NCBI GenBank assembly: GCA_963699255.1
Contig: OY969425.1
Location: forward strand, 1,050,001 to 1,082,000
Source: an uncultured bacterium
GTDB lineage: Bacteria > Margulisbacteria > WOR-1 > CAVSGV01
Length of the DNA stretch: 32,000 nt
Direction: 5' to 3'
Positions 5,524 through 19,390 of this stretch are shown here, one piece after another. Made by a program: the position numbers and the translations under genes. Numbering within the stretch: position 1 is the first letter of the stretch; every line of letters begins with the position of its first letter. The notes under the pieces were generated by a model. That model was given only the letters and a program-made list of their open reading frames with translations. It was not told where the DNA came from and searched no databases.

Positions 5524-5529
5524 TTGATC

Positions 5530-6999
5530 ATGGTACAGGAGCTTGAATATTTAACCTTAAATGAAATAAAAGCTTTTCTTAATGCCATCAACGACACCCG
5601 TGACCGGGCACTAATAATCCTATTCCTTAATACGGGCCTTTTCTTAACCGAGGTAACTTCCCTGAAAGTTGATTCGATCGACTGGAAGAAAAAGATACTT
5701 TCCGTCCCCGGCAACCGGAAAAGGACCATCCCGCTGAACGACCAGGTTTTTGAGGCGTTAGCCAAGTGGTCGAAGGAGCGTCCGGCAGGTAAAATTCCTG
5801 ATCTTTTTGTAACTACAAAAGGCGCGCTGAAAGACCTCACAAGTCGCGGCGTAGATTATCTGATAAGAAAGTACGCAGAACAAGCCGGCATAAAGAAGCG
5901 GGTCAATCCGCAAATACTTCGCAACACATTCGCTGTCCGGCTATTCTCGGAAGAACCCTCCATCGAAAAAGCTTCCGCCATTTTGGGCATATCCGACCCG
6001 GAATCGATAAATCGTTATATACAGGCCTCTAAAAGACCGCCGGCCAAGGTGGAGATAACCGAGAAGCTTGAGCATATCGACACCCGCCACCCCGTCGTTA
6101 AAGCTGTTTCAAAGTTATTCCCTACTAAGCCGAAGATCGTAAAGCCCACGACCGCAATAAAAGGCCCCATAACTCCCAGTCCCGAAGAAGTGATCTTCGG
6201 AAGGGATAATGTGATCGCCGACATAAAAGCTGATATCGCCAAAAGTCAGCCAGTTCTGTTGACTGGCCCGCTTGGAATAGGCAAAACTCATTTATTGATA
6301 CATATGTCAAAGGTCCTCGGTCCCAATACATTATATATATCTGCGCCCAATCCGCTTAAAACCGCTCTGATGCAAATACTCGTAAAACTTGATCCTGAAT
6401 GGCAGAAAAAGCTCAACACCAGAGCTTCAACGAAAGAGATAACCGACTATATTGTGAAAATTAAAGGCGCGAAGCCACCAGTTTTGTTGATCGATAATTT
6501 GAACAATATAAAAATCTCCGATATCGACCCTATTTTGACCTTGCTGAATAACTTTCCCATACTCGCCGCCGCCGATGAAGTAAAACCGAAGCTGAAGCAG
6601 GTCTGGTGGCAGCTTAAACAGGTCCCTCTCCCGCCGTTAAATGAAGATGCCTCGAAAGAACTTATCAAATATCTTACACAGAACCTTACTATTAGCGATT
6701 ATGAAATGCTTGAAACAAGGGTACTGACCCTATCAAACGGCCTTCCTCTTGCCATTGTCGATATGATCCATCAGATAAGCCATATCCCGATGGTTTCAAA
6801 AGATGTTATCCGTGATGTTTATCATGAAGCCGGAATACACTATCGCGACTGGACGACGGTTATAATCTTCATTTACTGGATAGCTGTCATTTTTAGATTT
6901 GTTGCGCTTGGAACAAAAAGCTATGAAGCCTATTTCCTTGCCGGTTTCGGCGTGACGTTATTGATGATTTTAAGAAATGTCATGTCGATGTTGAAGTGA
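5530..6999 (+). CDS. Tyrosine-recombinase-fold domain (degenerate active site) fused to a P-loop NTPase with a C-terminal membrane anchor
   Basis: The N-terminal ~175 aa resembles the XerC/D catalytic domain (RDRALIILFLNTGLFLTEV, ILRNTFAVRLF, LGISDPESINRYI), but with the first Arg as Phe and both His residues replaced. It also has FGRD...LLTGPLGIGKTHLL (Walker A), VLLIDNLN (Walker B-like) and two C-terminal hydrophobic helices. The track start at 5524 is a TTG that directly abuts the -10 hexamer, so ATG 5530 is preferred. Confidence 0.8.
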   Translation: MVQELEYLTLNEIKAFLNAINDTRDRALIILFLNTGLFLTEVTSLKVDSIDWKKKILSVPGNRKRTIPLNDQVFEALAKWSKERPAGKIPDLFVTTKGALKDLTSRGVDYLIRKYAEQAGIKKRVNPQILRNTFAVRLFSEEPSIEKASAILGISDPESINRYIQASKRPPAKVEITEKLEHIDTRHPVVKAVSKLFPTKPKIVKPTTAIKGPITPSPEEVIFGRDNVIADIKADIAKSQPVLLTGPLGIGKTHLLIHMSKVLGPNTLYISAPNPLKTALMQILVKLDPEWQKKLNTRASTKEITDYIVKIKGAKPPVLLIDNLNNIKISDIDPILTLLNNFPILAAADEVKPKLKQVWWQLKQVPLPPLNEDASKELIKYLTQNLTISDYEMLETRVLTLSNGLPLAIVDMIHQISHIPMVSKDVIRDVYHEAGIHYRDWTTVIIFIYWIAVIFRFVALGTKSYEAYFLAGFGVTLLMILRNVMSMLK

Positions 7000-7005
7000 A
7001 TATTT

Positions 7006-8439
7006 ATGTATAGATTTAGAAACATAAAACATTTATTAGATGATGGTGAGCTGGAAAATCAAGAGATATACTTCTCGGATATTTCTGCGCTAAATGATCC
7101 GATTGAAGGCTATAGGGAAATATGCTGGAAAGGAGATAGTATCCTTTGGAAAAACCTTATTAAGCATTATCTTCTATGCCTTGAAAATGTGATAGTGCTT
7201 ACCATGCTTTCAGAAGATCAGGTTAAGTTTAGCCAACAAGACATACCGGTATTTATGAGCACTGAAAAATTGCCAACTGAATTATATAAAAATATGTTCC
7301 AGGAAATATGCAATGAGGTTCTTAATAATGAGGGCATTATAAAGTACACGGAATATCTATCATCTCGCCTAGATGGCGTCAACCATGACGAATTGTTTAT
7401 TCACCTTAAAATGATACATATGATAGCCTGCGAGGCTATTATTAAAATACATGCGGCGCATAGTTTGCAACTTGCCTCAAACAAACCATCCACAAATCAT
7501 TCCGACAGTCTTACTAAATTGTTAACAGCTTTAGAGGAATTACAATCTGGCAAAGAAGAACACATTAATAGCTTGACGCTATTCTCTATGATGAAGCAAT
7601 TCATGAGAGATAATGACATTCTCAGTTCACGCAAATCAATGGGCAAAGGGGATAACAACAAACAATGCTTCATTAAATTTGAATTTCCAGCTGCTTATAT
7701 AGAACAGATTGAATCATTAACTTATCCCAATCTATATGTGGCATGCTTTACGGAGGATTGCACAAATCCTGTTACTTGGAGTCATTATGGGGATAGCCAC
7801 AAGGGCGTTGCCCTTCAATTCAAGCCTCAGCTTATCGAAAATGAACCATGTATTAATCTTTATGGGATCACGGGTGTTTGGGGAAACGGGAAAAATAGCT
7901 ACAGTAAACGTAAATACCCTTTTAAAAAGGTGACATATTCAAATGAATTCCCCAAAATTAATTTTTTTACTTCTCTCGGACAATTAACTGTTCCGCAAGC
8001 CTTGTCTCAATGGTATACAGATGTTGACGGCAAACAGAGCACCTATGCAAGTGACATATTTAATAAGCAAGACGAATGGCGACATGAATATTGGGCGAAA
8101 TTTGAAAAAAGCGTTTTAACTAAACTTAATGACTGGGAGAAAGAAGTGGAGTTTAGATTGATATTGCCCGAAATACTTGGTCTTCATACTGATATAAACG
8201 CTCGGAAATTTAAATACGATTTTAATGACTTAGGTGGCATTGTTTTTGGCATTAAAACACCATTAGAAACTAAATCGAGAATAATAGATATTATCGAGGA
8301 AAAATGCAAAAAAATTGATCGTAAAGACTTTGAATATTATCAAGCTCAGTATGATGAATCAGCTGGTAAAATCAATATTATTAGGATGAGCATAAACCAA
8401 ACGAGGTCGAATAAAGACAATGTTAGCACCAACACATAG
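7006..8439 (+). CDS. DUF2971-family protein
   Basis: The N-terminus MYRFRNIKHLL...EIYFSDISALNDPIEGY matches the DUF2971 signature as I recall it (YkYr...l.fs....fNDPfE). 477 aa, AT-rich, and 6 nt downstream of the preceding stop codon. Confidence 0.7.
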   Translation: MYRFRNIKHLLDDGELENQEIYFSDISALNDPIEGYREICWKGDSILWKNLIKHYLLCLENVIVLTMLSEDQVKFSQQDIPVFMSTEKLPTELYKNMFQEICNEVLNNEGIIKYTEYLSSRLDGVNHDELFIHLKMIHMIACEAIIKIHAAHSLQLASNKPSTNHSDSLTKLLTALEELQSGKEEHINSLTLFSMMKQFMRDNDILSSRKSMGKGDNNKQCFIKFEFPAAYIEQIESLTYPNLYVACFTEDCTNPVTWSHYGDSHKGVALQFKPQLIENEPCINLYGITGVWGNGKNSYSKRKYPFKKVTYSNEFPKINFFTSLGQLTVPQALSQWYTDVDGKQSTYASDIFNKQDEWRHEYWAKFEKSVLTKLNDWEKEVEFRLILPEILGLHTDINARKFKYDFNDLGGIVFGIKTPLETKSRIIDIIEEKCKKIDRKDFEYYQAQYDESAGKINIIRMSINQTRSNKDNVSTNT

Positions 8440-10463: not shown

Positions 10464-10492
10464 TTGACTTTCCTTTACCCTTCGTGTAAAGT
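10464..10492 (+). promoter_or_regulatory. Putative sigma-70 promoter of the higB-HTH-immA-beta operon
   Basis: TTGACT (10464-10469), 17-nt spacer, TAAAGT (10487-10492), 12 nt before ATG 10505. Confidence 0.45.
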
Positions 10493-10504
10493 GTTTTGGA
10501 TGAT

Positions 10505-10837
10505 ATGGACATTAACTTTAAAACATCAAAACTTGAGAAAACCTTTAACTCTTCAAAGAAGCTTAGTATTGAATATGGGCAGAATGCCGAGGTAATTATG
10601 AACAGAATGAAGCTTTTCCAAGAGGTCGTATGCCTGAACGATGTGCCTGTTACAAAGCCACCAAGGAGACATTCTCTCAAAGGAGACAGGGAAAATCAGT
10701 TCGCAGTTGATTTAAGACAAGGCTTTAGGATTACCTTTTGCGCTAACCATGACCCGCTCCCACTTAAAGAGGATGGTGGGATTGATTTAATGAAAGTAAC
10801 GGCAATTACTATTTTAAGTGTGGTGAATTACCATTGA
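10505..10837 (+). CDS. higB: HigB-like toxin (plasmid maintenance system killer, RelE/ParE superfamily)
   Basis: MDINFKTSKLEKTFNS...KLFQEV...LKGDRENQFAVDLRQGFRITF resembles the HigB-like toxin family. It sits immediately upstream of a HigA-type HTH. The track start at 10496 is a TTG; ATG 10505 is preferred. Confidence 0.7.
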   Translation: MDINFKTSKLEKTFNSSKKLSIEYGQNAEVIMNRMKLFQEVVCLNDVPVTKPPRRHSLKGDRENQFAVDLRQGFRITFCANHDPLPLKEDGGIDLMKVTAITILSVVNYH

Positions 10838-10839
10838 AT

Positions 10840-11070
10840 ATGACTAACAATAAAAATACATATAATCCGGACTATGCAGTACATCCTGGAGTAATAATCG
10901 AGGAAACACTCTCTGTATTGGGGATGAAAAAGAGCGATCTAGCTATACGCACTGAGCTTTCATTAAAGACAATAAGCCAAATAATAAATGGTAAAGAGTT
11001 TATTACACCAGAAACAGCAGTAAAGCTTGAAAGAGTATTAGGAATGCAAGCGTATATTTGGAGGAACTAG
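10840..11070 (+). CDS. higA: HigA/VapI-type XRE helix-turn-helix antitoxin-like protein (possibly the N-terminal part of a split HTH-peptidase)
   Basis: HPGVIIEETLSVLGMKKSDLAIRTELSLKTISQIINGKEFITPETAVKLERVLGM is a typical HigA HTH. The ORF stops (TAG 11068-11070) in the middle of the helix that normally continues as FWLNLQxxYDL. Confidence 0.7.
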   Translation: MTNNKNTYNPDYAVHPGVIIEETLSVLGMKKSDLAIRTELSLKTISQIINGKEFITPETAVKLERVLGMQAYIWRN

Positions 11071-11930
11071 ATAGTTCATATCGTATATTTATTGCGAAAC
11101 AAAAAGATCAAGAGAAATATGCCGCGGCACAACGATGGATTAAAAGATTCCCCATAAAAGAACTGATTGAGAGGGGCTATCTAAAGGGTTCAGATAATAT
11201 TAATGAACTTACCGAACAGCTTTTAACTTTCTTTTCGGCTGGATCGTTAAATTCATTTAAAAGTCAAATAACTAATGTTGCTTTCCGCAAATCAGCAGCT
11301 TACCAGAGTAAGCCTGAAAGTGTTATGACTTGGCTTAGAATAGGCCAAGTTGAAGCGCAAAACACTGAAGCGCCATTGTTTAACAGGGACATGTTTACTT
11401 CTAATCTAAAAGAAATTAAGAGATTAACAACATGTAAATCAATTAAAGAAATGCTATTAAGAACGAGGGAATTATGCCTGAAGAGTGGCGTTGTTGTCTT
11501 ATATATTGAAGAAATTGAGCAAACTAGAGCAAGTGGTGCGGCATTTTGGTTAACCAAAGATAAACCGGTCATCATGCTTAGCTCTCGATATAAAACCGAT
11601 GATCATTTCTGGTTTAGTTTTTTCCATGAATGTGGACACCTGCTCAATGATAGCAAGAAAACAACATTTATAGATTATGATGATAATGAAGAAGATGCGA
11701 ACATCTTTGCAGGCAATTTCTTGATTCCACAAAAAGATTATGATGAGTATTTCGGGCAATTTAGAAATGCCGATTTAAACGCAATTATCGTTAATACTTT
11801 TGCTAAGAAAATTGGAATCGCTCCTGGAATTGTTGTCGGTAGGCTTCAAAAAGACAAAAAAATCGATTATGCCAAACAATATTCAAATCTACAAAAGAAA
11901 ATTGACTTTAAAGAAATTAATCGAACATGA
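11058..11930 (+). CDS. ImmA/IrrE-family (COG2856, peptidase M78) zinc metallopeptidase
   Basis: HExxH motif in FFHECGHLLND, and the linker RWIKRFPIKELIERGYL typical of HTH-ImmA fusion proteins. It starts at a TTG overlapping the HTH ORF in another frame. Its stop overlaps the next ATG as ATGA. Confidence 0.8.
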   Translation: MEELDSSYRIFIAKQKDQEKYAAAQRWIKRFPIKELIERGYLKGSDNINELTEQLLTFFSAGSLNSFKSQITNVAFRKSAAYQSKPESVMTWLRIGQVEAQNTEAPLFNRDMFTSNLKEIKRLTTCKSIKEMLLRTRELCLKSGVVVLYIEEIEQTRASGAAFWLTKDKPVIMLSSRYKTDDHFWFSFFHECGHLLNDSKKTTFIDYDDNEEDANIFAGNFLIPQKDYDEYFGQFRNADLNAIIVNTFAKKIGIAPGIVVGRLQKDKKIDYAKQYSNLQKKIDFKEINRT

Positions 11931-13168
11931 ACACTTTTTACGTGCCAATATTAAAAGCAAAAGAGGGAGAATTGTCTGCATTGAATGAGCTCTCCGGGAA
12001 TGTGGCGAAAAAAGTATTTCCTTTATTAGAAATCGTGCCGGATACTCGTTTACTTTCTATTAATGAAAAAATCAAAATAAACGATTCCATAACTAAGCTA
12101 ACCAAGAAAAGTCCTCATAAATTTACATATAAAGACAAAAAAGGAACCCTTCATGTCAAAGGGAGAATGACAGAAAAAGAGTTAGCATATTTGAGAGATA
12201 TTTCAAAGGAATTGAACGATGAGGTATATGCCGCAGCTGTCAACCAACTATACACAAGATCAAACCCAACCATTCAGGATTATCTTAAAGGGGTTTTTAC
12301 TAAGATGGTTGCTTTCAAGCTTACAGGAAGGACTTTATATATTGACTTTCATCATCTCGAAGAAAACAAGCATAGGGTGAATTTATTGGAATTAATATTA
12401 CAAGAGATAAGCATGAATAACATCAAAGCCATTCTTGTCTTTAGCGTTGAGGAGTTAAATAAATATAGTAAAACAATTATTGAGAGCGGAATAAAATCTC
12501 TGGCGATTAGAATTAATGGAAATGAAATCGATTCGCTTAAGGAGATTAAGGCCCAGCTCAAAACAAATCTGGATATTCCAATAAATCAGGTTGACTTAAT
12601 TATTGATCACAAAAGCCTTCAAGGAGGCGACAATCAATTATACGTTAGAGAATATGAAAGAATTACGGAAAAGGATGTATGGGGAAGATTGATATTTGCT
12701 GGGGCATCATTTCCTGTGGATCTGATGGGATATCCCCCCTACAGTGAACATGACATCCCAAGAATTGAATGGCAACAATGGAAATATTTGGCAGAAAAAC
12801 ATGATAATAAAAATATAACTTATTCGGATTACACTATAAGGAGTTCGCAATTACCTCTTGCAAAATTTGGAATTAGTCCAAGTGCAAACATTCGATATAC
12901 TCACGACGATATTTGGTTTTTAGTCCGAGGCAAATCTATAAAACACGACCCAAAGGGGAACAAGCAATATTATGATATATCAAATACAATTTTAGTTGAT
13001 GCTAAATATGCCGGTGAAAATCATTGTGAGGGGGATAAACTTATTAATATGTGCGCAAATAAAAAGTGTGGCCCTGGAAATCAGACTACTTGGATAACCG
13101 CTGGTATAACACATCATATTACGACGGTTGTTGAGCAGCTCTCCAGTTTTCTCGGGACTTTAAAGTAG
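11927..13168 (+). CDS. Beta-protein family protein (T4 beta protein / sce7725-like)
   Basis: The N-terminus MNTFYVPILKAKEGELSALNEL matches the family hallmark as I recall it (YvPiLK.K.GE..AL). C-terminal Cys/His-rich tail ...NHCEGDKLINMCANKKCGPGNQTTWITAGITHHI. ATGA coupling to immA. The family assignment is from memory. Confidence 0.6.
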   Translation: MNTFYVPILKAKEGELSALNELSGNVAKKVFPLLEIVPDTRLLSINEKIKINDSITKLTKKSPHKFTYKDKKGTLHVKGRMTEKELAYLRDISKELNDEVYAAAVNQLYTRSNPTIQDYLKGVFTKMVAFKLTGRTLYIDFHHLEENKHRVNLLELILQEISMNNIKAILVFSVEELNKYSKTIIESGIKSLAIRINGNEIDSLKEIKAQLKTNLDIPINQVDLIIDHKSLQGGDNQLYVREYERITEKDVWGRLIFAGASFPVDLMGYPPYSEHDIPRIEWQQWKYLAEKHDNKNITYSDYTIRSSQLPLAKFGISPSANIRYTHDDIWFLVRGKSIKHDPKGNKQYYDISNTILVDAKYAGENHCEGDKLINMCANKKCGPGNQTTWITAGITHHITTVVEQLSSFLGTLK

Positions 13169-13272
13169 TGCGCACGTAATCTTTCAGTACAACTAATGGG
13201 AAATCATTGGCAAGCATTCCCCATAACAAATATTTTGGCTTACTAATTATCCCCTTTTCTACACCGTGCAAT

Positions 13273-13716
13273 TTAAAGAATTTCAACGATTTCACTTTTC
13301 CATAACAATTGAACAAGCGAAAAAGCATCTACATTATTGTTAAATCTATTTTGCCTAATCATCGTAAATTCTTTATCTTTCTTAAATCTTGGAATCAATT
13401 TAATGCCCCACCATGAGGGGATCATTTTTTTTGCTGACTTTAAATGCGCCTCATTCAATACAAGGGTAACAGTGTCCATAACCTTGTTATACACGACTAT
13501 TTGTGAGGGCAATCTTGCTAGCGTATCAAAGTCACTCTTTATTTCATATCCGTGCATATACCCATTAACTGCAGCTATATCAATCCTTGCCCCACCCTGG
13601 CACAATTCAAATTCCTCAATAATAGTGGTATTTTTCTCGGGTTTTAGCGTTGCCTCATGCTTGTAAAGGAGTTTTCTTATGTCTGCATCATACAAAGGAC
13701 TATACGACCTGGACAT
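13273..13716 (-). CDS. PD-(D/E)xK-fold nuclease-like protein (sce7726/MmcB-like)
   Basis: EFELCQGGARIDIAAVNGYMHGYEIKSDFD provides an E...D...ExK arrangement. 147 aa, convergent with the Beta-protein gene. The sce7725/sce7726 pairing is recalled from NCBI family names and is not verified here. Confidence 0.55.
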   Translation of the reverse strand: MSRSYSPLYDADIRKLLYKHEATLKPEKNTTIIEEFELCQGGARIDIAAVNGYMHGYEIKSDFDTLARLPSQIVVYNKVMDTVTLVLNEAHLKSAKKMIPSWWGIKLIPRFKKDKEFTMIRQNRFNNNVDAFSLVQLLWKSEIVEIL

Positions 13717-13803
13717 ATATAGGCCCCCCCTTTTTTTAACTGTGTGAAATTATACGCTTTTAAATTATTGATGCAAGGTAAGAAGATTGGTAAGCTGTGA
13801 TAA

Positions 13804-13836
13804 GAGGCACTTACGTCTCTTCCCAGTAAGTGCCTC
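13804..13836 (-). terminator. Hairpin downstream of the R-M gene
   Basis: Perfect 11-bp stem GAGGCACTTAC (13804-13814) / GTAAGTGCCTC (13826-13836) with an 11-nt loop, 18 nt past the stop of the minus-strand gene. On the minus strand it is followed by TTAT, a weak U-tract. Confidence 0.5.
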
Positions 13837-13853
13837 AACCTTAACACGACAGT

Positions 13854-16800
13854 TCATTTTCCAAGAAAATCAATCTCATCGATCTCTTTCATAATTTTAT
13901 CCGTTTCTGTCAGAGCAACAACAATCTTCTGATAATGCTCAATGTCTTCATTAGATAGCTTGCGCCCTTTTCGGTCCTTGAGCCATTTTTGCGCAGGCTG
14001 GTAGCCGCCAATATAGAAGTTCCACGCAATTTCCGGTACTTTACCAAAGTATTGTGTCGCATTTATAAATACCTTGCTGTCTTTATAGGTTAGCTTATCA
14101 ACAGTATCCGACCCCTCAACAGGGAAGGTTGTAATATATTTTTCTACTTTAGGTGATTCGAGCAGATGCAATCCACGCAATTCTGCGCCGAGCTTTACCA
14201 GCCCATTGAATGTCTTTGCGTCTTTCGGATAAGGCACTCGTGGAAAATCAATCTTTAAGAATTCCTTATACTTTTCGCGGTAACTTGGTGAATGTAAAAC
14301 CGCGTATATATAATCAAAAATATCTTCGGGGTTACTCTTCTTGACGATCCGTTCTATTGCATCGACAATAACCTTGCTAGTATTTGCTACTCGTCTCGCA
14401 TCATCAGCACAAAGATATAGCGGAAACACTGTATCAATACTTACACTGTCTGAACGTATATATCCATTAACTAAAGGCCCGTTTGCAATAAAATAATATG
14501 AAGAAGGCATATTAGCAGGAGAACGATTTACTGTTACCAAACCGATATTCCTCACAATTAAATGTCGCATAACTTCTTTCCTCATTCGCTCAATAAAATC
14601 TTTATGATAATATACAAAGCGAGTGTCAAATGGTCTATAACATATTGAGACAGTGTTGTTACTATTAAAGTCATGCTTCAGAGCCTCTGCGATCTTCCAT
14701 CCCGCATTCTCCTTTAATGAGTATTTTGACTTTGCCTCTTGTGGCGATTGGCAACAAAGAAAATTCTTAACTCTTTTTTCCAGTGTCTCTCTGTCAAAAT
14801 CAACAATAAAATCATCGCGCGAAGTTACAACCCCAACACTTGACACAGGAAATAATTCGGCAACAGAGAATCCTTTTCCATACTGCTCCCTGATTGCCTC
14901 ATTACGGGCTATCCATTCATAATTCGGCTCAATCGGGCATACAGTTTTCCATCCCACAGAATCAATTGAATGTGAGTCTAAATACTTAAACTTATCTGAA
15001 CGTGAGCCATAACAGTCAGCATGAAATATTTTTGCTTGATTATTCTTGCTATTCTTCTTTTTTAACCCAACAAATATAGAAACTCCAGTTTTAATATCAA
15101 AAACATTCTTATCGTCAGCCCCTTTAGGTGTTTTCTCTTGTTTATTTGCGTTGCCATGAAGATCAAGCACATATATCTCATCAAATGTTTTCATAAGACG
15201 GAATCGCATACCGCGAAAAGTAGGATTGTCAATGTAGCCGTGCGCTGTGATCATTGCCACTATGCCTTCTCCGGTTTTTTCGATCATACTTTCAGCATAC
15301 CTAATAAATTTTACATAATCATCATTCAGCCATTTTGAATTTCGCTCCTGCAATCTTCCACCTGTCGGTTCAACCTTATATACATCATTACCTGTATACG
15401 AAGCGTTACTTGATTCGCCTGAATAAGGTGGATTACCAATTACCACCATTATTGGTGTCTCATTTTTGATTTTGCTTGCTTCTTTTGCTTCTTCAGCAAT
15501 GCTTTCGGCCAAACCAAAAGAAAGCATGTCCTGTTGCACCTCGGTTTGTTCAAGAGAATTTGTCAAATAAATGCCTAATCTATTGTTAAATATCTTAAAC
15601 CCTGTCTTTTTGAATGCCATGCTTAATTTGAGATGCGCGATAGTATATGGCGTCATCATAATTTCGAACCCATGAAGACGCGGTAAAAGGTCATTGTGAA
15701 CATATGTTGTCCATCTTCCCTTTTGCCCCTGTTCGATCAATCTTTTATAGATTGTGTCAATAGTCGCGCTTATAAATGTGCCGGTTCCAACCGCTGGATC
15801 CAGGATTTGAACACGATGTTTTCCATTTGACAGCTTTGAAGAATCAGCAAGACCATTTGGAAGGCCAAACTCTTTTTGCAGAATGTAGTCTACCGAACGT
15901 ACAATAAAGTTTACTACCGGCAGCGGGGTATAATACGCCCCCATTTTCTTGCGAAGCTCTGGGTCATATTCTTTAAGAAAATCTTCATAAAAATGAATAA
16001 CGGGGTCCGGGCTCGCATGTTCTTGGCCGCCAATATCAATTTTGAAGTATTGACTCATCAGCTGTTGAACGTTCGCATGCAGAAAGACGATACAAAGTTC
16101 ATCAACAATATATTTTAAACGATCATCGTAGTCAGCTCCGGCAATATGATCAAAAAAGTGACGAAGGAAAGGGTTGGATGCCGGAACCAGATCCCTGGCT
16201 TCCTGACGGGAGAATGTATCCGGAGTTTCATCGTTATAACGAGCGACAAATAGCCCATAAACAAGTGTTTGCGCGTACATATCCGCAAAAGTATCTACGG
16301 TCAGGTCATGCACAAGTAATTTTTTTATTGTTTCATATACCCGCAATAGTCCCGCATTTTTCTTTGAATCTCTATCCGAAGAGAGATAGTGCCTAATATT
16401 ATCCCTTATTCTTTGCGCCTTTCCCCCCATGATCTTTGCAAGGTGCTCTCCTGATTTGATCGGCTCTTTTTGAGATTGCGTAAAGTCAACAAGGGTTTTC
16501 GCGACTTGTTCATAATTCTCCGGTAAAGGAGAGATAGTGCGGTTCTCTTTGTCAAAGCTTGCTATTTTGATCGGCTCTTCATAAGAAACCCCATTCCTGT
16601 AAAACCTAAATTCCAAATAATCCGTCAGCACCAAATTCGTATAGCCATAATACCTTGCCATTTGTTCGGATTTCTCAACCTTATCAAGCGAGATCCCAAT
16701 ATCTTTTGTTTCAATATAGAGGATAGGAACACTATTATTGATCACGACAAAATCCGGCTTATTCCCTTCTGCAGCCCTTTCATCGTGACCGATGCGTTGA

Positions 16801-16940
16801 ACCTTTATCGACTCGAATATGCCATTTAACAATATTTCAAAGTCGGTACGGTACCCCATCTCGCTTGTTTCTTTGTGGGCAAATTTAGAAGCGACAGACT
16901 TTAGATATTTGGAAACTAAATCATTTTTATTTTCTGCCAT
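13854..16940 (-). CDS. Single-chain type IIG-like restriction-modification enzyme (PD-ExK endonuclease + gamma-class N6-adenine methyltransferase + C-terminal target-recognition region)
   Basis: N-terminal NKPDFVVINNSVPILYIETKD (D...ExK), SAM motif I ILDPAVGTGTF, catalytic motif IV VVIGNPPYSG, and a ~450-aa C-terminal region with FPLY as in type ISP/IIG specificity domains. No helicase domain is present. Confidence 0.8.
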   Translation of the reverse strand: MAENKNDLVSKYLKSVASKFAHKETSEMGYRTDFEILLNGIFESIKVQRIGHDERAAEGNKPDFVVINNSVPILYIETKDIGISLDKVEKSEQMARYYGYTNLVLTDYLEFRFYRNGVSYEEPIKIASFDKENRTISPLPENYEQVAKTLVDFTQSQKEPIKSGEHLAKIMGGKAQRIRDNIRHYLSSDRDSKKNAGLLRVYETIKKLLVHDLTVDTFADMYAQTLVYGLFVARYNDETPDTFSRQEARDLVPASNPFLRHFFDHIAGADYDDRLKYIVDELCIVFLHANVQQLMSQYFKIDIGGQEHASPDPVIHFYEDFLKEYDPELRKKMGAYYTPLPVVNFIVRSVDYILQKEFGLPNGLADSSKLSNGKHRVQILDPAVGTGTFISATIDTIYKRLIEQGQKGRWTTYVHNDLLPRLHGFEIMMTPYTIAHLKLSMAFKKTGFKIFNNRLGIYLTNSLEQTEVQQDMLSFGLAESIAEEAKEASKIKNETPIMVVIGNPPYSGESSNASYTGNDVYKVEPTGGRLQERNSKWLNDDYVKFIRYAESMIEKTGEGIVAMITAHGYIDNPTFRGMRFRLMKTFDEIYVLDLHGNANKQEKTPKGADDKNVFDIKTGVSIFVGLKKKNSKNNQAKIFHADCYGSRSDKFKYLDSHSIDSVGWKTVCPIEPNYEWIARNEAIREQYGKGFSVAELFPVSSVGVVTSRDDFIVDFDRETLEKRVKNFLCCQSPQEAKSKYSLKENAGWKIAEALKHDFNSNNTVSICYRPFDTRFVYYHKDFIERMRKEVMRHLIVRNIGLVTVNRSPANMPSSYYFIANGPLVNGYIRSDSVSIDTVFPLYLCADDARRVANTSKVIVDAIERIVKKSNPEDIFDYIYAVLHSPSYREKYKEFLKIDFPRVPYPKDAKTFNGLVKLGAELRGLHLLESPKVEKYITTFPVEGSDTVDKLTYKDSKVFINATQYFGKVPEIAWNFYIGGYQPAQKWLKDRKGRKLSNEDIEHYQKIVVALTETDKIMKEIDEIDFLGK

Positions 16941-17094: not shown

Positions 17095-18156
17095 TTAATA
17101 GTTAATGGAATAATTGAATAATTGTTTGTTGATTTTAATTGAAGCTTTATATGGTGGGTAGGCATTGGCAGTGGATATATATAAATCTCTTTTTATTCGA
17201 GTATTTGGAGGCAAGATAACAGGTTTATTAAAATAGGATTGAGCTATTGAGGAATTATCCGATTTGGATAAACTCATTATTAATGATTGTTTTTGTCCCT
17301 CTAAATAGGAGATTTTCATGCGCCCCATATTAGCAGCGTTGTGATAGGCACTAATGTTACGTTCTTGGTCTTGTTGCCTTATTCCTTCTAATGCAGCACC
17401 AACAATTCCGCCATAATCTCTCTGCTCCTCCTCCTTAATTGTAACATTGCCATAAATATCTTTACTGGAAACATACTGCTTTTTTGGAATATCATTGGAT
17501 TTATTAGCCACTTCTTGTTGATATCCATATTCATTTTGGTCAACAATAGATTGAAGAGAACGAATTTGAGCATCTATTTCAGCAATTTTAGCTTCATTTT
17601 CTGACCTATTTGCATTATCAAGAGATCTCGCCACTTCATCAGGACTTAAAGTCATCAATAATGTCCTATCAGTATCTTTCATGTAAAAGTTATTTGGGTC
17701 TATTTTGACAGCATATTTATTTTTATTGTAAATGTTTAAGCTTATTTTAATAATATCTTTACCGATAATTGACCCGCTTATTTGAACTTCAACATTTGCC
17801 CTCGTTTTACTTGATGGTTTCTGGGAAAACAAATCTACATCTGTTATCGGAATGGGTTTCGACGCCTCTTGCGAACCTAACTGATTATTAGATGCTTTGG
17901 GGATATTAATTGCTTTATCATCACCATTATTAATAATAAATTCATCTTTATAGATTATATGATCCCCGGGGTATTTTACGATTATAGAATGGTTTCCCGC
18001 TTCAATTGTAGACACTACTATGCCATAGCCAGTAATATTATTATCAATTTCAATTTTATATTCTGCTATCGGTGAATTAACGGTTATGGTCCCATAGGCA
18101 AAGCAACATGAATAGCATAATCCTACTATAAAGGCCGACATGGAAAATACGCGCAT
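17095..18156 (-). CDS. Secreted protein with an N-terminal PEGA-like beta-sandwich and a central coiled coil; function unknown
   Basis: Signal peptide MSAFIVGLCYSCCFAYG. TITVNSPIAEYKIEIDNN...IEAGNHSIIVKYPG resembles a PEGA domain. Coiled-coil stretch ENEAKIAEIDAQIRSLQSIVDQ. Confidence 0.6.
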   Translation of the reverse strand: MRVFSMSAFIVGLCYSCCFAYGTITVNSPIAEYKIEIDNNITGYGIVVSTIEAGNHSIIVKYPGDHIIYKDEFIINNGDDKAINIPKASNNQLGSQEASKPIPITDVDLFSQKPSSKTRANVEVQISGSIIGKDIIKISLNIYNKNKYAVKIDPNNFYMKDTDRTLLMTLSPDEVARSLDNANRSENEAKIAEIDAQIRSLQSIVDQNEYGYQQEVANKSNDIPKKQYVSSKDIYGNVTIKEEEQRDYGGIVGAALEGIRQQDQERNISAYHNAANMGRMKISYLEGQKQSLIMSLSKSDNSSIAQSYFNKPVILPPNTRIKRDLYISTANAYPPYKASIKINKQLFNYSINY

Positions 18157-18406: not shown

Positions 18407-18471
18407 CGTTGATCCGAGGAATATCCGTTGATAGCTTTATTCGTTGATTCGTTGTCTCATTCGTTGATAGC
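18407..18471 (+). promoter_or_regulatory. CGTTGAT-repeat element, copy 1 (33-bp core at 18439-18471)
   Basis: CGTTGAT at 18407, 18426, 18442 and 18462, plus CGTTGTC at 18450. The core is ATTCGTTGATTCGTTGTCTCATTCGTTGATAGC. TATAAT follows at 18477-18482 and ATG at 18494. Confidence 0.75.
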
Positions 18472-18493
18472 CTTTGCTATAATCAACAGTCAA

Positions 18494-19390
18494 ATGTTCA
18501 ATAAAACCGGTTTTATATCCTTTCTTTGCTTGATCTTATTGCAGATTCTTTGCGTAGGTTCTTTCGCTTTATCTGTACGCTCCATTGGAATGGGTGATGT
18601 ATACCCGCCTACCGGTCGCGACCCTTCCGCCATCTTCTATAATCCCGCCTATCTAGCCAATTGCGACAGCATCAGGTTATCGCTGGACAATATGAACGGT
18701 CCGATGGACCCGAAAGACAATATTGCGCTAAGCATGGGAGATCTCGGCATTGCGTCTTCTTCGCTTGGGAATGGCTCCGTTTTTTATCTGGCAACGGGCA
18801 TGAACACATACTCTTTCCTGCGGTTGGGGATTGGCGCAAAGTTCTATAACGATCAAAAGGATTTTGATGTTGGCTTCGATTGGGATGTGGTGAAAAATGT
18901 CGGTTTATCTGTCGCCCTTTTGAACGAAGAAGACAAGGTTTTGCCAAGGCAGTATTCAGCAACAATAGCCTATAAGTCAGACGACGGCGACAAATGCCTG
19001 GCCTTGAACTCCGACCTATCCGGAAATGTCAGGCTTGGATATGAAAAACAATTTACCGAAAAAGCCTTCTGGCGAGTAGGCTATAATGTCGACCATCCCT
19101 CCCTTGGCTGCACCCTTCCACTCTATCAAAATATCGACTTCGACCTTGCCGCCGAACTAGGAAAAGACAATACCAAGATACTATTTGGAATAGAGTTATT
19201 TCGTAATACCGAGAACAAGAGGGTGAATTCGGAACACAGTATCAATTTCGGCAAAGCGATCGTCGGAGAAGACGAAATTTATCAAAATCGACGGATTCAA
19301 TATCCATTATGTGGAATCCGGCTCAGGCCCCGATCTTGTCCTTATCGGCGGCGGCATACATTACACACATCACTGGGATCCTTACATTGA
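18494..19390 (+). CDS. Outer-membrane beta-barrel-like protein (PorV/FadL-like N-terminal signature); 3' end uncertain
   Basis: Signal peptide MFNKTGFISFLCLILLQILCVGSFA. VRSIGMGDVY...DPSAIFYNPAYLA resembles the aRslGMGGa...NPA motif of PorV/UPF0164-type barrels. A barrel-like C-terminal strand KILFGIELF lies near 19200. The remaining ORF to 19390 overlaps the hydrolase reading frame and is probably not genuine. Confidence 0.6.
   Translation: MFNKTGFISFLCLILLQILCVGSFALSVRSIGMGDVYPPTGRDPSAIFYNPAYLANCDSIRLSLDNMNGPMDPKDNIALSMGDLGIASSSLGNGSVFYLATGMNTYSFLRLGIGAKFYNDQKDFDVGFDWDVVKNVGLSVALLNEEDKVLPRQYSATIAYKSDDGDKCLALNSDLSGNVRLGYEKQFTEKAFWRVGYNVDHPSLGCTLPLYQNIDFDLAAELGKDNTKILFGIELFRNTENKRVNSEHSINFGKAIVGEDEIYQNRRIQYPLCGIRLRPRSCPYRRRHTLHTSLGSLH

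Follow-up and report, generated by a model that had tools for sequence, protein, structure and literature searches.

By following up an original prediction made from the letters of a 32,000-nucleotide (nt) stretch of contig OY969425.1 (hereafter the window), which belongs to an uncultured bacterium of the Margulisbacteria, we examined a compact group of genes encoding a HigB-like protein, a helix-turn-helix (HTH) protein with an M78-type peptidase, a relative of the P4 beta protein and, on the opposite strand, a relative of P4 cII. We compare this locus with the PD-lambda-2 and P4 gop-beta-cII anti-phage systems. Coordinates are positions within the window, and the loci of relatives are labelled L001, L034, L094 and so on. 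Five open reading frames (ORFs) were called at 10464-13716, all at the positions given in the original prediction, whose parts list was likewise borne out by the profile matches described below. The reference for comparison is L001, a 10-kb metagenomic contig that is syntenic with the window. Its YdjM-like and Poly_export genes share 65-67% protein identity with those of the window, and its genes run in the order YdjM-like, Poly_export, a 110-aa HigB-like gene, a 365-aa HTH-M78 gene, beta and a convergent 198-aa cII, all four cassette genes being intact. The features of the window locus are the following.

10464..10492, plus strand: promoter-like site, TTGACT-17 nt-TAAAGT, 9/12 in a consensus scan.
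10505..10837, plus strand: HigB-like RelE/ParE-type toxin gene, 110 aa (PHROG 3066 and a weak Proteus HigB structure match).
10840..11070, plus strand: HigA-type HTH, 78-aa ORF with start at 10834/10840 and stop codon at 11068-11070 (TIGR02607).
11058..11930, plus strand: linker and ImmA/IrrE (M78) peptidase, 290-aa ORF (PF06114, PD-Lambda-2_B).
11060..11072, plus strand: frame break in the HTH-peptidase gene, the window having one base fewer than L001.
11927..13168, plus strand: beta (TIM-B) protein gene, 413 aa (PF14350; PD-Lambda-2_C).
13119..13168, no strand assigned: tail-to-tail coding overlap of beta and cII, 50 nt, of the same length in L001.
13119..13290, minus strand: C-terminal helical part of cII in another frame (join of frames; tblastn with L001 cII).
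13273..13716, minus strand: P4 cII-like, sce7726-family gene, N-terminal 147 codons with a probable PD-(D/E)xK-type core (NF033832).
Near 13275-13285, minus strand: frame break in cII, the window having one base more than L001.

The genes of the locus are tightly coupled, and a single promoter had been proposed to drive the operon. The block formed by the -35 hexamer, spacer and -10 hexamer is nearly identical between the window and L001 while the remaining spacer is not conserved, but the site reaches only 9/12 in the consensus scan and the count of such sites across the region shows no above-chance excess. Only 12 nt separate the -10 hexamer from the ATG of the first gene, which leaves a very short leader.

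That ATG, at 10505, aligns with the start of the first gene of L001, and the two 110-aa products are 68% identical, ending in NYH in the window and DYH in L001. The HigB-like toxin call gains support from a match to PHROG 3066, annotated as 'toxin of TA system' (TA, toxin-antitoxin; E = 2.3e-7), but not by Pfam, NCBIfam or PADLOC, none of which matched the window protein (PADLOC even at E<=1), and the similarity to Proteus vulgaris HigB chains in the PDB was weak (E 0.04-0.06) and spanned 28 residues, HxLKGDRExxxxxxxRxxxRITF. A 112-aa Moorella protein at the same position gave a weak match to PF05015 (HigB-like_toxin). A hidden Markov model (HMM) built from the window and L001 proteins found no further members among 86 loci, which is how the canonical loci were found to use the PF09907 HigB. 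To judge from sequence, the first gene is the putative counterpart of PD-lambda-2 gene A, a functional analogue from another HigB family (Proteus-type, not PF09907).

The HTH ORF scores above the cut-off of TIGR02607 (antidote_HigA; E = 2.2e-15, 56.3 bits against 47.7), in line with the HigA-type HTH foreseen for it, and shares 79% identity with the first 76 residues of the undivided 365-aa protein of L001. The ImmA/IrrE peptidase was equally recovered by HMM, the second ORF matching PF06114 at 4.7e-13 with its HECGH motif and downstream Glu kept. In PADLOC the same ORF matches PD-Lambda-2_B (PDLC03982) at 3.2e-33 over profile positions 109-381 of 402; RmrA and the other M78 models give 1e-10 or weaker. 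Where two separate genes had been described, relatives carry HTH and peptidase as one gene of ~365 aa, which is split in the window by a frame break.

The third gene matches PF14350 (Beta_protein) at 5.7e-52 and PADLOC PD-Lambda-2_C (PDLC03984) at 2.1e-44, with 1.2e-5 for the PADLOC 'beta' model, and its ATG overlaps the peptidase TGA as ATGA, so that both the family and the translational coupling of the original prediction stand. Its placement in sce7725 was rejected: the protein scores 14.7 bits against the NCBIfam sce7725_fam cut-off of 60 and falls in another PF14350 branch. The window protein keeps every residue that is invariant in the family (P32, D140, R195, D227, R279, D301 and Y324) and also carries a ~65-aa insertion (residues ~43-110, after the first strand) common only to its two closest relatives. 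An AlphaFold2 model from a 46-sequence alignment reached a pLDDT (predicted local distance difference test) of 93.3 and a pTM (predicted template modelling score) of 0.92, and nearly all top Foldseek matches in the PDB are TIM barrels (MeTr, TrpA, designed barrels, aldolases). The model thus supports a predicted TIM-barrel fold for beta. The closest relative is the L001 protein (L001 3876-5105), at 46% identity overall, with an N-terminal half 25-40% identical and a C-terminal half 53-71% identical; the flanking core and the other cassette genes are 55-79% identical between the two loci. From this lower identity we take beta to be the fastest-changing part of the cassette, and such divergence would fit a sensor under diversifying selection.

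The small gene that converges on the operon belongs, as its outline had suggested, to the sce7726 family (NF033832, 8.9e-43; 146.3 bits against a cut-off of 70, profile positions 1-140 of 184), but it does not end at 13273: it runs on to 13119 through a frame break. Its match to the PADLOC 'cll' model improves from 2.1e-24 to 1.3e-27 when it is read across the break. The E...D...ExK nuclease signature was confirmed, E35, D46, E58 and K60 (L001 numbering) being invariant in 42 cII homologues. In an AlphaFold2 model of the L001 orthologue (pLDDT 92.1) these residues lie on three consecutive strands (31-38, 43-51 and 53-60), and the top Foldseek matches, in which PD-(D/E)xK proteins are enriched, include SfsA, Cas4 SSO0001, YaeQ, Shedu SduA and a putative restriction endonuclease, all at E>=0.04 and TM (template modelling score)<=0.3. 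On this modelling cII likely has a nuclease fold. Its 50-nt overlap with beta is identical between the window and L001 at 44/50 nt, and the stretch that encodes the conserved beta motif VVEQL gives, when read on the other strand, the cII tail WRAAQQ. Such 3' overlaps, of 14-137 nt, occur in 47/48 beta/cII pairs, the exception being P4 with a 27-nt gap. The pair, which had been regarded as lacking an assigned function, corresponds to beta and cII of P4, which belong to anti-phage systems of proven function.

Frame breaks did not figure in the original prediction, but as assembled the locus is not intact: two of its genes carry them. When the 365-aa L001 protein was used in tblastn, the match in the window switched frame at 11067, with 79% and 68% identity on the two sides, and joining the frames extended TIGR02607 coverage from 5-66 to 5-80 of 81 at a score of 59.9 bits. 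With L001 cII, tblastn returned two segments in two frames that switch near 13280; read across the break, cII ends at 13119 and matches NF033832 at 165 bits over positions 1-183 of 184. This second break removes the C-terminal helical domain and spares the catalytic core. A codon-by-codon comparison with L001 confirmed both one-base length differences.

We lean towards the breaks being real mutations. The strongest competing explanation is that the cassette is intact and functional and that both breaks are consensus errors of a single-contig assembly. Both are indeed one-base length differences at short same-base runs, the catalytic motifs are kept on both sides of each break and the downstream frames stay open to their normal stops, as would be expected if the breaks were very recent or artefactual. 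However, the runs at the breaks are only 2-3 bases long, and we found no frame break in ~28 kb of other long ORFs, drawn from the window (2147 aa, or 6.4 kb, 1028, 710, 601, 491, 477 and 461 aa) and from elsewhere in the genome (rpoB, 1108 aa; uvrA, 951 aa; two rpoC frames). The chance that two random errors would both fall within ~1.7 kb of ~30 kb is ~0.003. In addition, broken copies of such cassettes occur in other genomes too (L034, L048, L061 and L033). The low two-error chance of ~0.3% and the shortness of the base runs are what tip us towards mutation, and assembly error is in our estimate possible and clearly the less likely of the two. If the breaks are real, the locus would still yield HigB, a free 78-aa HigA-like HTH, a complete beta and a cII core that lacks the C-terminal helical domain. 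With HTH-peptidase and cII both frame-broken, the window cassette as assembled is probably impaired, and it may be reduced at most to a HigB/HigA-like pair plus an orphan beta.

The broken copies elsewhere take several forms: ImmA is split in L034 (2702-3971), beta is split in L048 (710-1797) and L061 (3845-5027), and beta is cut short in L033 (3983-4726). Decay of such cassettes may be common. In the genome of the window, rpoC occupies two open frames of 698 and 740 aa (G000:C1:1674735-1678818), a split that looks like the natural cyanobacterial-type rpoC1/rpoC2 arrangement.

Three bodies of published work bear on what the locus is. A functional selection in E. coli uncovered PD-lambda-2 (Vassallo et al. 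2022, PMC9519451), whose three genes encode a HigB-like protein (A), a fusion of an Xre-type HTH with a peptidase (B) and a protein related to a P4 antitoxin (C). Its mode of defence is abortive infection: B is toxic by itself, A relieves this toxicity, and C is required against lambda-vir (PMC9519451). P4 itself carries gop (247-648 of its record) and beta (651-1718) on the same strand, with cII (1746-2540) running towards them on the other. The P4 gop-beta-cII genes are reportedly also referenced to work by Ghisotti in 1990. The P4 system protects against lambda and P1 (Rousset et al. 2022, PMC9122126) and is triggered by the phage accessory gene orf184 (bioRxiv 2023.04.06.535777). A recent preprint of October 2026 describes "TIM-B systems", in which a TIM-barrel beta is combined with varied effectors including HigB, a metallopeptidase, often HTH-fused, sits between effector and TIM-B, and P4-like versions have an overlapping convergent restriction-type endonuclease; it is a comparative-genomics prediction and claims kinship of beta to deazaguanine (queuine) transglycosylases (bioRxiv 10.64898/2026.10.19.760177).

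Taken with the profile matches and gene order above, this work makes it likely that the four genes form an anti-phage cassette of the PD-lambda-2 / P4 gop-beta-cII ("TIM-B") kind, made from two modules that also exist alone. As parts of that whole, and with the same good but incomplete confidence, the first module would be a HigB-like mRNA-interferase toxin with a HigA-HTH-M78 peptidase fusion, and the second a P4 "beta" TIM-barrel protein with a convergent P4-cII-type PD-(D/E)xK nuclease. The proposal that toxin, HTH-protease, Beta protein and nuclease form one conflict or abortive-infection unit is consistent with the published PD-lambda-2 (PMC9519451) and gop-beta-cII (PMC9122126) systems.

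Several observations weigh against this assignment. Sequence supports the HigB identity of the first gene only weakly. The Foldseek matches of beta are generic TIM barrels, with a best E of 1.3e-3 (probability up to 1.00), and there is no transglycosylase among its top 50 PDB matches; for cII, no match to a nuclease fold is significant (best E 0.04). HExxH is kept in all 17 other full-length homologues aligned, the broken copy of the window among them, but the intact HTH-M78 protein of L001 (L001 2776-3873) has HDCGH in its place, which calls into question the need for peptidase catalysis. The protein that is toxic by itself in PD-lambda-2 is the peptidase and not HigB (PMC9519451), so the direction of toxin and antitoxin is uncertain here. 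Finally, the frame breaks could be assembly errors.

To see how these genes are distributed, we collected 80 beta loci from species genomes with an 8-sequence beta alignment as query, called their ORFs and searched them with HMMs built for this study; clustering of beta at 50% identity, references and window included, gave 41 clusters. A convergent cII accompanies beta in 42/80 loci and in 33/41 clusters. Beta lacks a cII partner in four PD-lambda-2-type loci, in a single truncated copy and in two Streptomyces-type clusters; the 32 loci of these clusters (among L039 and L046-L087) are nearly all from Streptomyces, and no cII-like ORF was detected in them within 4 kb. One of these Streptomyces-type clusters has a 414-aa upstream ORF without a Pfam match. 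The genes 5' of beta vary (Gop, DUF4145, DUF2513, FRG-domain proteins and others), and in 13 other loci from several phyla the gene directly upstream is an HTH-M78 gene of ~400 aa, with cII present in 9 of the 13. Among the 12 HTH-M78/beta loci with a readable upstream gene (L048 was left out of this count, its contig beginning inside the peptidase gene), the first gene is HigB-like and ~86-110 aa long in 11, the remaining locus, L031, having a DUF6932 protein instead. Two of these first genes were scanned and matched PF09907 (HigB_toxin), in L017 at 1.9e-23 and in L060 at 5.3e-5, the latter under the cut-off. Tests of the B proteins from L017, L060 and the E. coli locus gave no match to the TIGR02607 HTH. 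L094 is a third locus with the same four genes as the window and L001, and the three make up a sub-type marked by a HigA-type HTH and by a HigB from another family.

Three beta/cII loci without an upstream peptidase (L002, L008 and L014) have an ImmA-like HExxH protein of 333-340 aa just past cII, on the beta strand (L002 3231-4235, L008 2079-3101, L014 5697-6698), which suggests that the peptidase may be able to sit on either side of the beta/cII pair.

The first module is itself widespread. The HigA-M78 fusion family comprises >3,400 proteins at E<=1e-10, of ~365 aa and named 'HigA family addiction module antidote', whose members are preceded by a partner of 110-112 aa. Beyond L094, we sampled six further contexts: in four, Dehalococcoides and Moorella among them, HigB and HigA-M78 stand alone without beta or cII, and in two they are followed by other genes (an unassigned 374-aa protein; a large methyltransferase). 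One might then suppose a chance juxtaposition, in which a HigB/HigA-peptidase TA pair and a beta/cII pair have come to lie side by side in a defence island while functioning independently of each other. The stand-alone HigB/HigA-M78 pairs in Dehalococcoides, Moorella and the two further contexts speak for this, as does beta/cII occurring alone in the Rac prophage or with DUF4145, DUF2513 and FRG partners. Against it stand the ATGA overlap of peptidase stop and beta start, the same gene order in 16 loci from several phyla with two HigB families, and the requirement for the beta gene in defence by PD-lambda-2 of E. coli (PMC9519451). We regard mere juxtaposition as improbable. Independent distribution of the genes had been named as grounds for refuting the original prediction, and the outcome is divided: each pair does occur without the other, but the combination recurs in several phyla. 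As read from gene content, the cassette is a recurrent joining of two self-standing modules, joined more than once and with two HigB families.

A further explanation, which we consider quite doubtful, accepts the split between HTH and peptidase as a functional derived state, like two-gene ImmR/ImmA pairs, instead of decay. The metallopeptidase is only 'sometimes' fused to an HTH in TIM-B systems (bioRxiv 10.64898/2026.10.19.760177), and the 78-aa product of the window still scores above the HigA model cut-off. However, the peptidase frame lacks a canonical start with a well-placed ribosome-binding site, its sole in-frame start being the TTG at 11058 with GGAGG at 11060-11064 after it; the break falls mid-way through a conserved helix that is continuous in L001; and the adjoining cII is broken too. 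We also weighed programmed frameshifting at the HTH/peptidase junction and dismissed it, since a slippery heptamer is missing, Asn-tRNA would re-pair poorly with GAA after a -1 slip and the L001 frame is continuous.

Other defence genes share an AT-rich block with the cassette, the locus region having 33-38% G+C compared with 45-49% in the dnaG-rpoD core to its left. Its annotated neighbours are the following.

7006-8439: DUF2971 / PDC-S31 gene (Pfam and PADLOC).
13764..13836, minus strand: spacer upstream of cII, with an inverted repeat and a promoter-like site at 13793-13764 (consensus matches only).
13854..16940, minus strand: Type ISP/IIG restriction-modification (R-M) enzyme, 1028 aa, intact and single-chain (PF18135 8e-85 and N6_Mtase; PADLOC REase_MTase_IIG 1.5e-291).

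In L001 a Trypsin_2 / PDC-S45-like gene (L001 966-1742) lies between the YdjM-like and Poly_export genes, and the DUF2971 guest of the window lies one position further left. Two ORFs at the right edge of the AT-rich block, 17095-18156 (minus strand, 353 aa) and 18428-19390 (plus strand, 320 aa), had no Pfam or PADLOC match. The Type ISP/IIG gene is upstream of and co-oriented with cII and is not part of the cassette; in the spacer between them, a perfect 11-nt inverted repeat at 13804-13836 (GAGGCACTTAC, an 11-nt loop, GTAAGTGCCTC) is probably the terminator of the Type ISP gene.

In the window, L001 and L094 alike, the genes immediately upstream of cII, in the same orientation, encode an R-M system, and its type differs: Type ISP/IIG in the window, Type III in L001 (5695-9894) and a Type II BglII-like gene with an MT-A70 methylase in L094 (5861-7119). 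It is conceivable, and in our view very unlikely, that a cassette of this HigB sub-type is wired to the R-M system as a back-up, firing once restriction has been shut down or evaded by a phage; the level of the convergent HigB-peptidase-beta transcript could then be set by R-M transcription that runs on into cII and across the 50-nt overlap. No R-M gene was seen among ten other cII neighbours examined, all on the same strand, which encode HD, KAP NTPase, FtsZ, IS1, Fic or unassigned proteins. A general association between cII and an upstream R-M system was rejected across 44 loci, of which 19 have a same-strand neighbour, 14 an opposite-strand one and 11 none. The adjacency may reflect a defence-island effect or a real link, the latter being unlikely.

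An ImmR/ImmA-type lysogeny or excision switch of an integrated mobile element can be set aside almost entirely: HTH and M78 pairs do control prophages and integrative and conjugative elements, and the region is AT-rich and near an integrase-like gene (5524-6999), but we found no phage or conjugation genes in the window, the peptidase matches PD-Lambda-2_B best (3e-33, against 1e-10 or weaker for RmrA and other M78 models) and the flanking core genes are syntenic in L001.

A working model for the anti-phage cassette can be drawn from the E. coli systems and the anatomy of the locus. The operon would be transcribed from the conserved promoter at 10464-10492 and probably repressed by its own HTH. 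In the uninfected cell, HigB and the HTH-peptidase would hold each other in check. During infection, beta, a predicted enzyme or sensor with a conserved polar pocket, would be needed to switch the system on; the peptidase would lift the restraint, releasing the HigB ribonuclease and possibly the cII nuclease, and these effectors would stop the cell before the phage completes its cycle, that is, abortive infection. The convergent transcripts of cII and the beta operon may antagonise each other across the 50-nt overlap.

The locus is of interest in several respects. It bears on modularity, the beta/cII pair and the HigB/HigA-peptidase pair being separable modules. It extends the taxonomic reach of this kind of system to an uncultured lineage with small genomes; beta was found neither in the 40 nearest relatives nor in 108 other sampled genomes of the phylum. 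The window provides a natural example of apparent decay, by two frame breaks, in a potentially self-toxic cassette, and its intact relative L001 would be a usable second test case for the mechanism of the kind, including the role of beta, the peptidase substrate and the cII/beta overlap.

Compared with PD-lambda-2, the window shows the same one-strand order of three genes (HigB-like, HTH-M78 fusion, P4-beta-like) and strong matches to the B and C models. It differs in that its first gene is not a PF09907 HigB and matches no PADLOC model; that its HTH is the TIGR02607 HigA type missing from the canonical B, the B profile being matched only from position 102 on; that beta carries the extra insertion of ~65 aa; that gene B is frame-broken; and that a convergent cII is present, whereas the E. 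coli, Pantoea and Pseudomonas loci have none. In E. coli C (L088, NZ_CP029371; 2336-6547), which encodes HigB of 86 aa, ImmA of 402 aa and beta of 375 aa, a convergent 505-aa SIR2-family gene lies 80 nt past beta, where other loci have cII, and may be an alternative convergent effector.

Compared with P4 gop-beta-cII, the window has the same beta followed by a convergent cII, with a toxin gene upstream, and it matches both the 'beta' and 'cll' models of PADLOC, the former weakly (1.2e-5). HigB and the HTH-peptidase take the place of Gop, and the PADLOC 'gop' model matched none of the ORFs of the locus. P4 cII is longer, at 264 aa, and separated from beta by its 27-nt gap, whereas cII of the window overlaps beta and is frame-broken. 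As for the TIM-B systems, the TIM-barrel fold of the window beta is supported by its model, but the link to transglycosylases was not recovered by Foldseek of the PDB. The first two genes of the window belong to the same family as the two-gene HigB/HigA-M78 modules, most of which stand alone among those sampled, whereas in the window, L001 and L094 they are joined to beta/cII. Of the NCBIfam sce7725/sce7726 pair, the window has a cII above the sce7726_fam cut-off and a beta below that of sce7725_fam. PD-lambda-2 and gop-beta-cII are proven anti-phage systems and their joint architecture has already been described by comparative genomics, so there is little new in the kind of system; the locus is a further member of it, with a swapped HigB/HTH family, the addition of cII relative to the E. 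coli prototype and two frame breaks.

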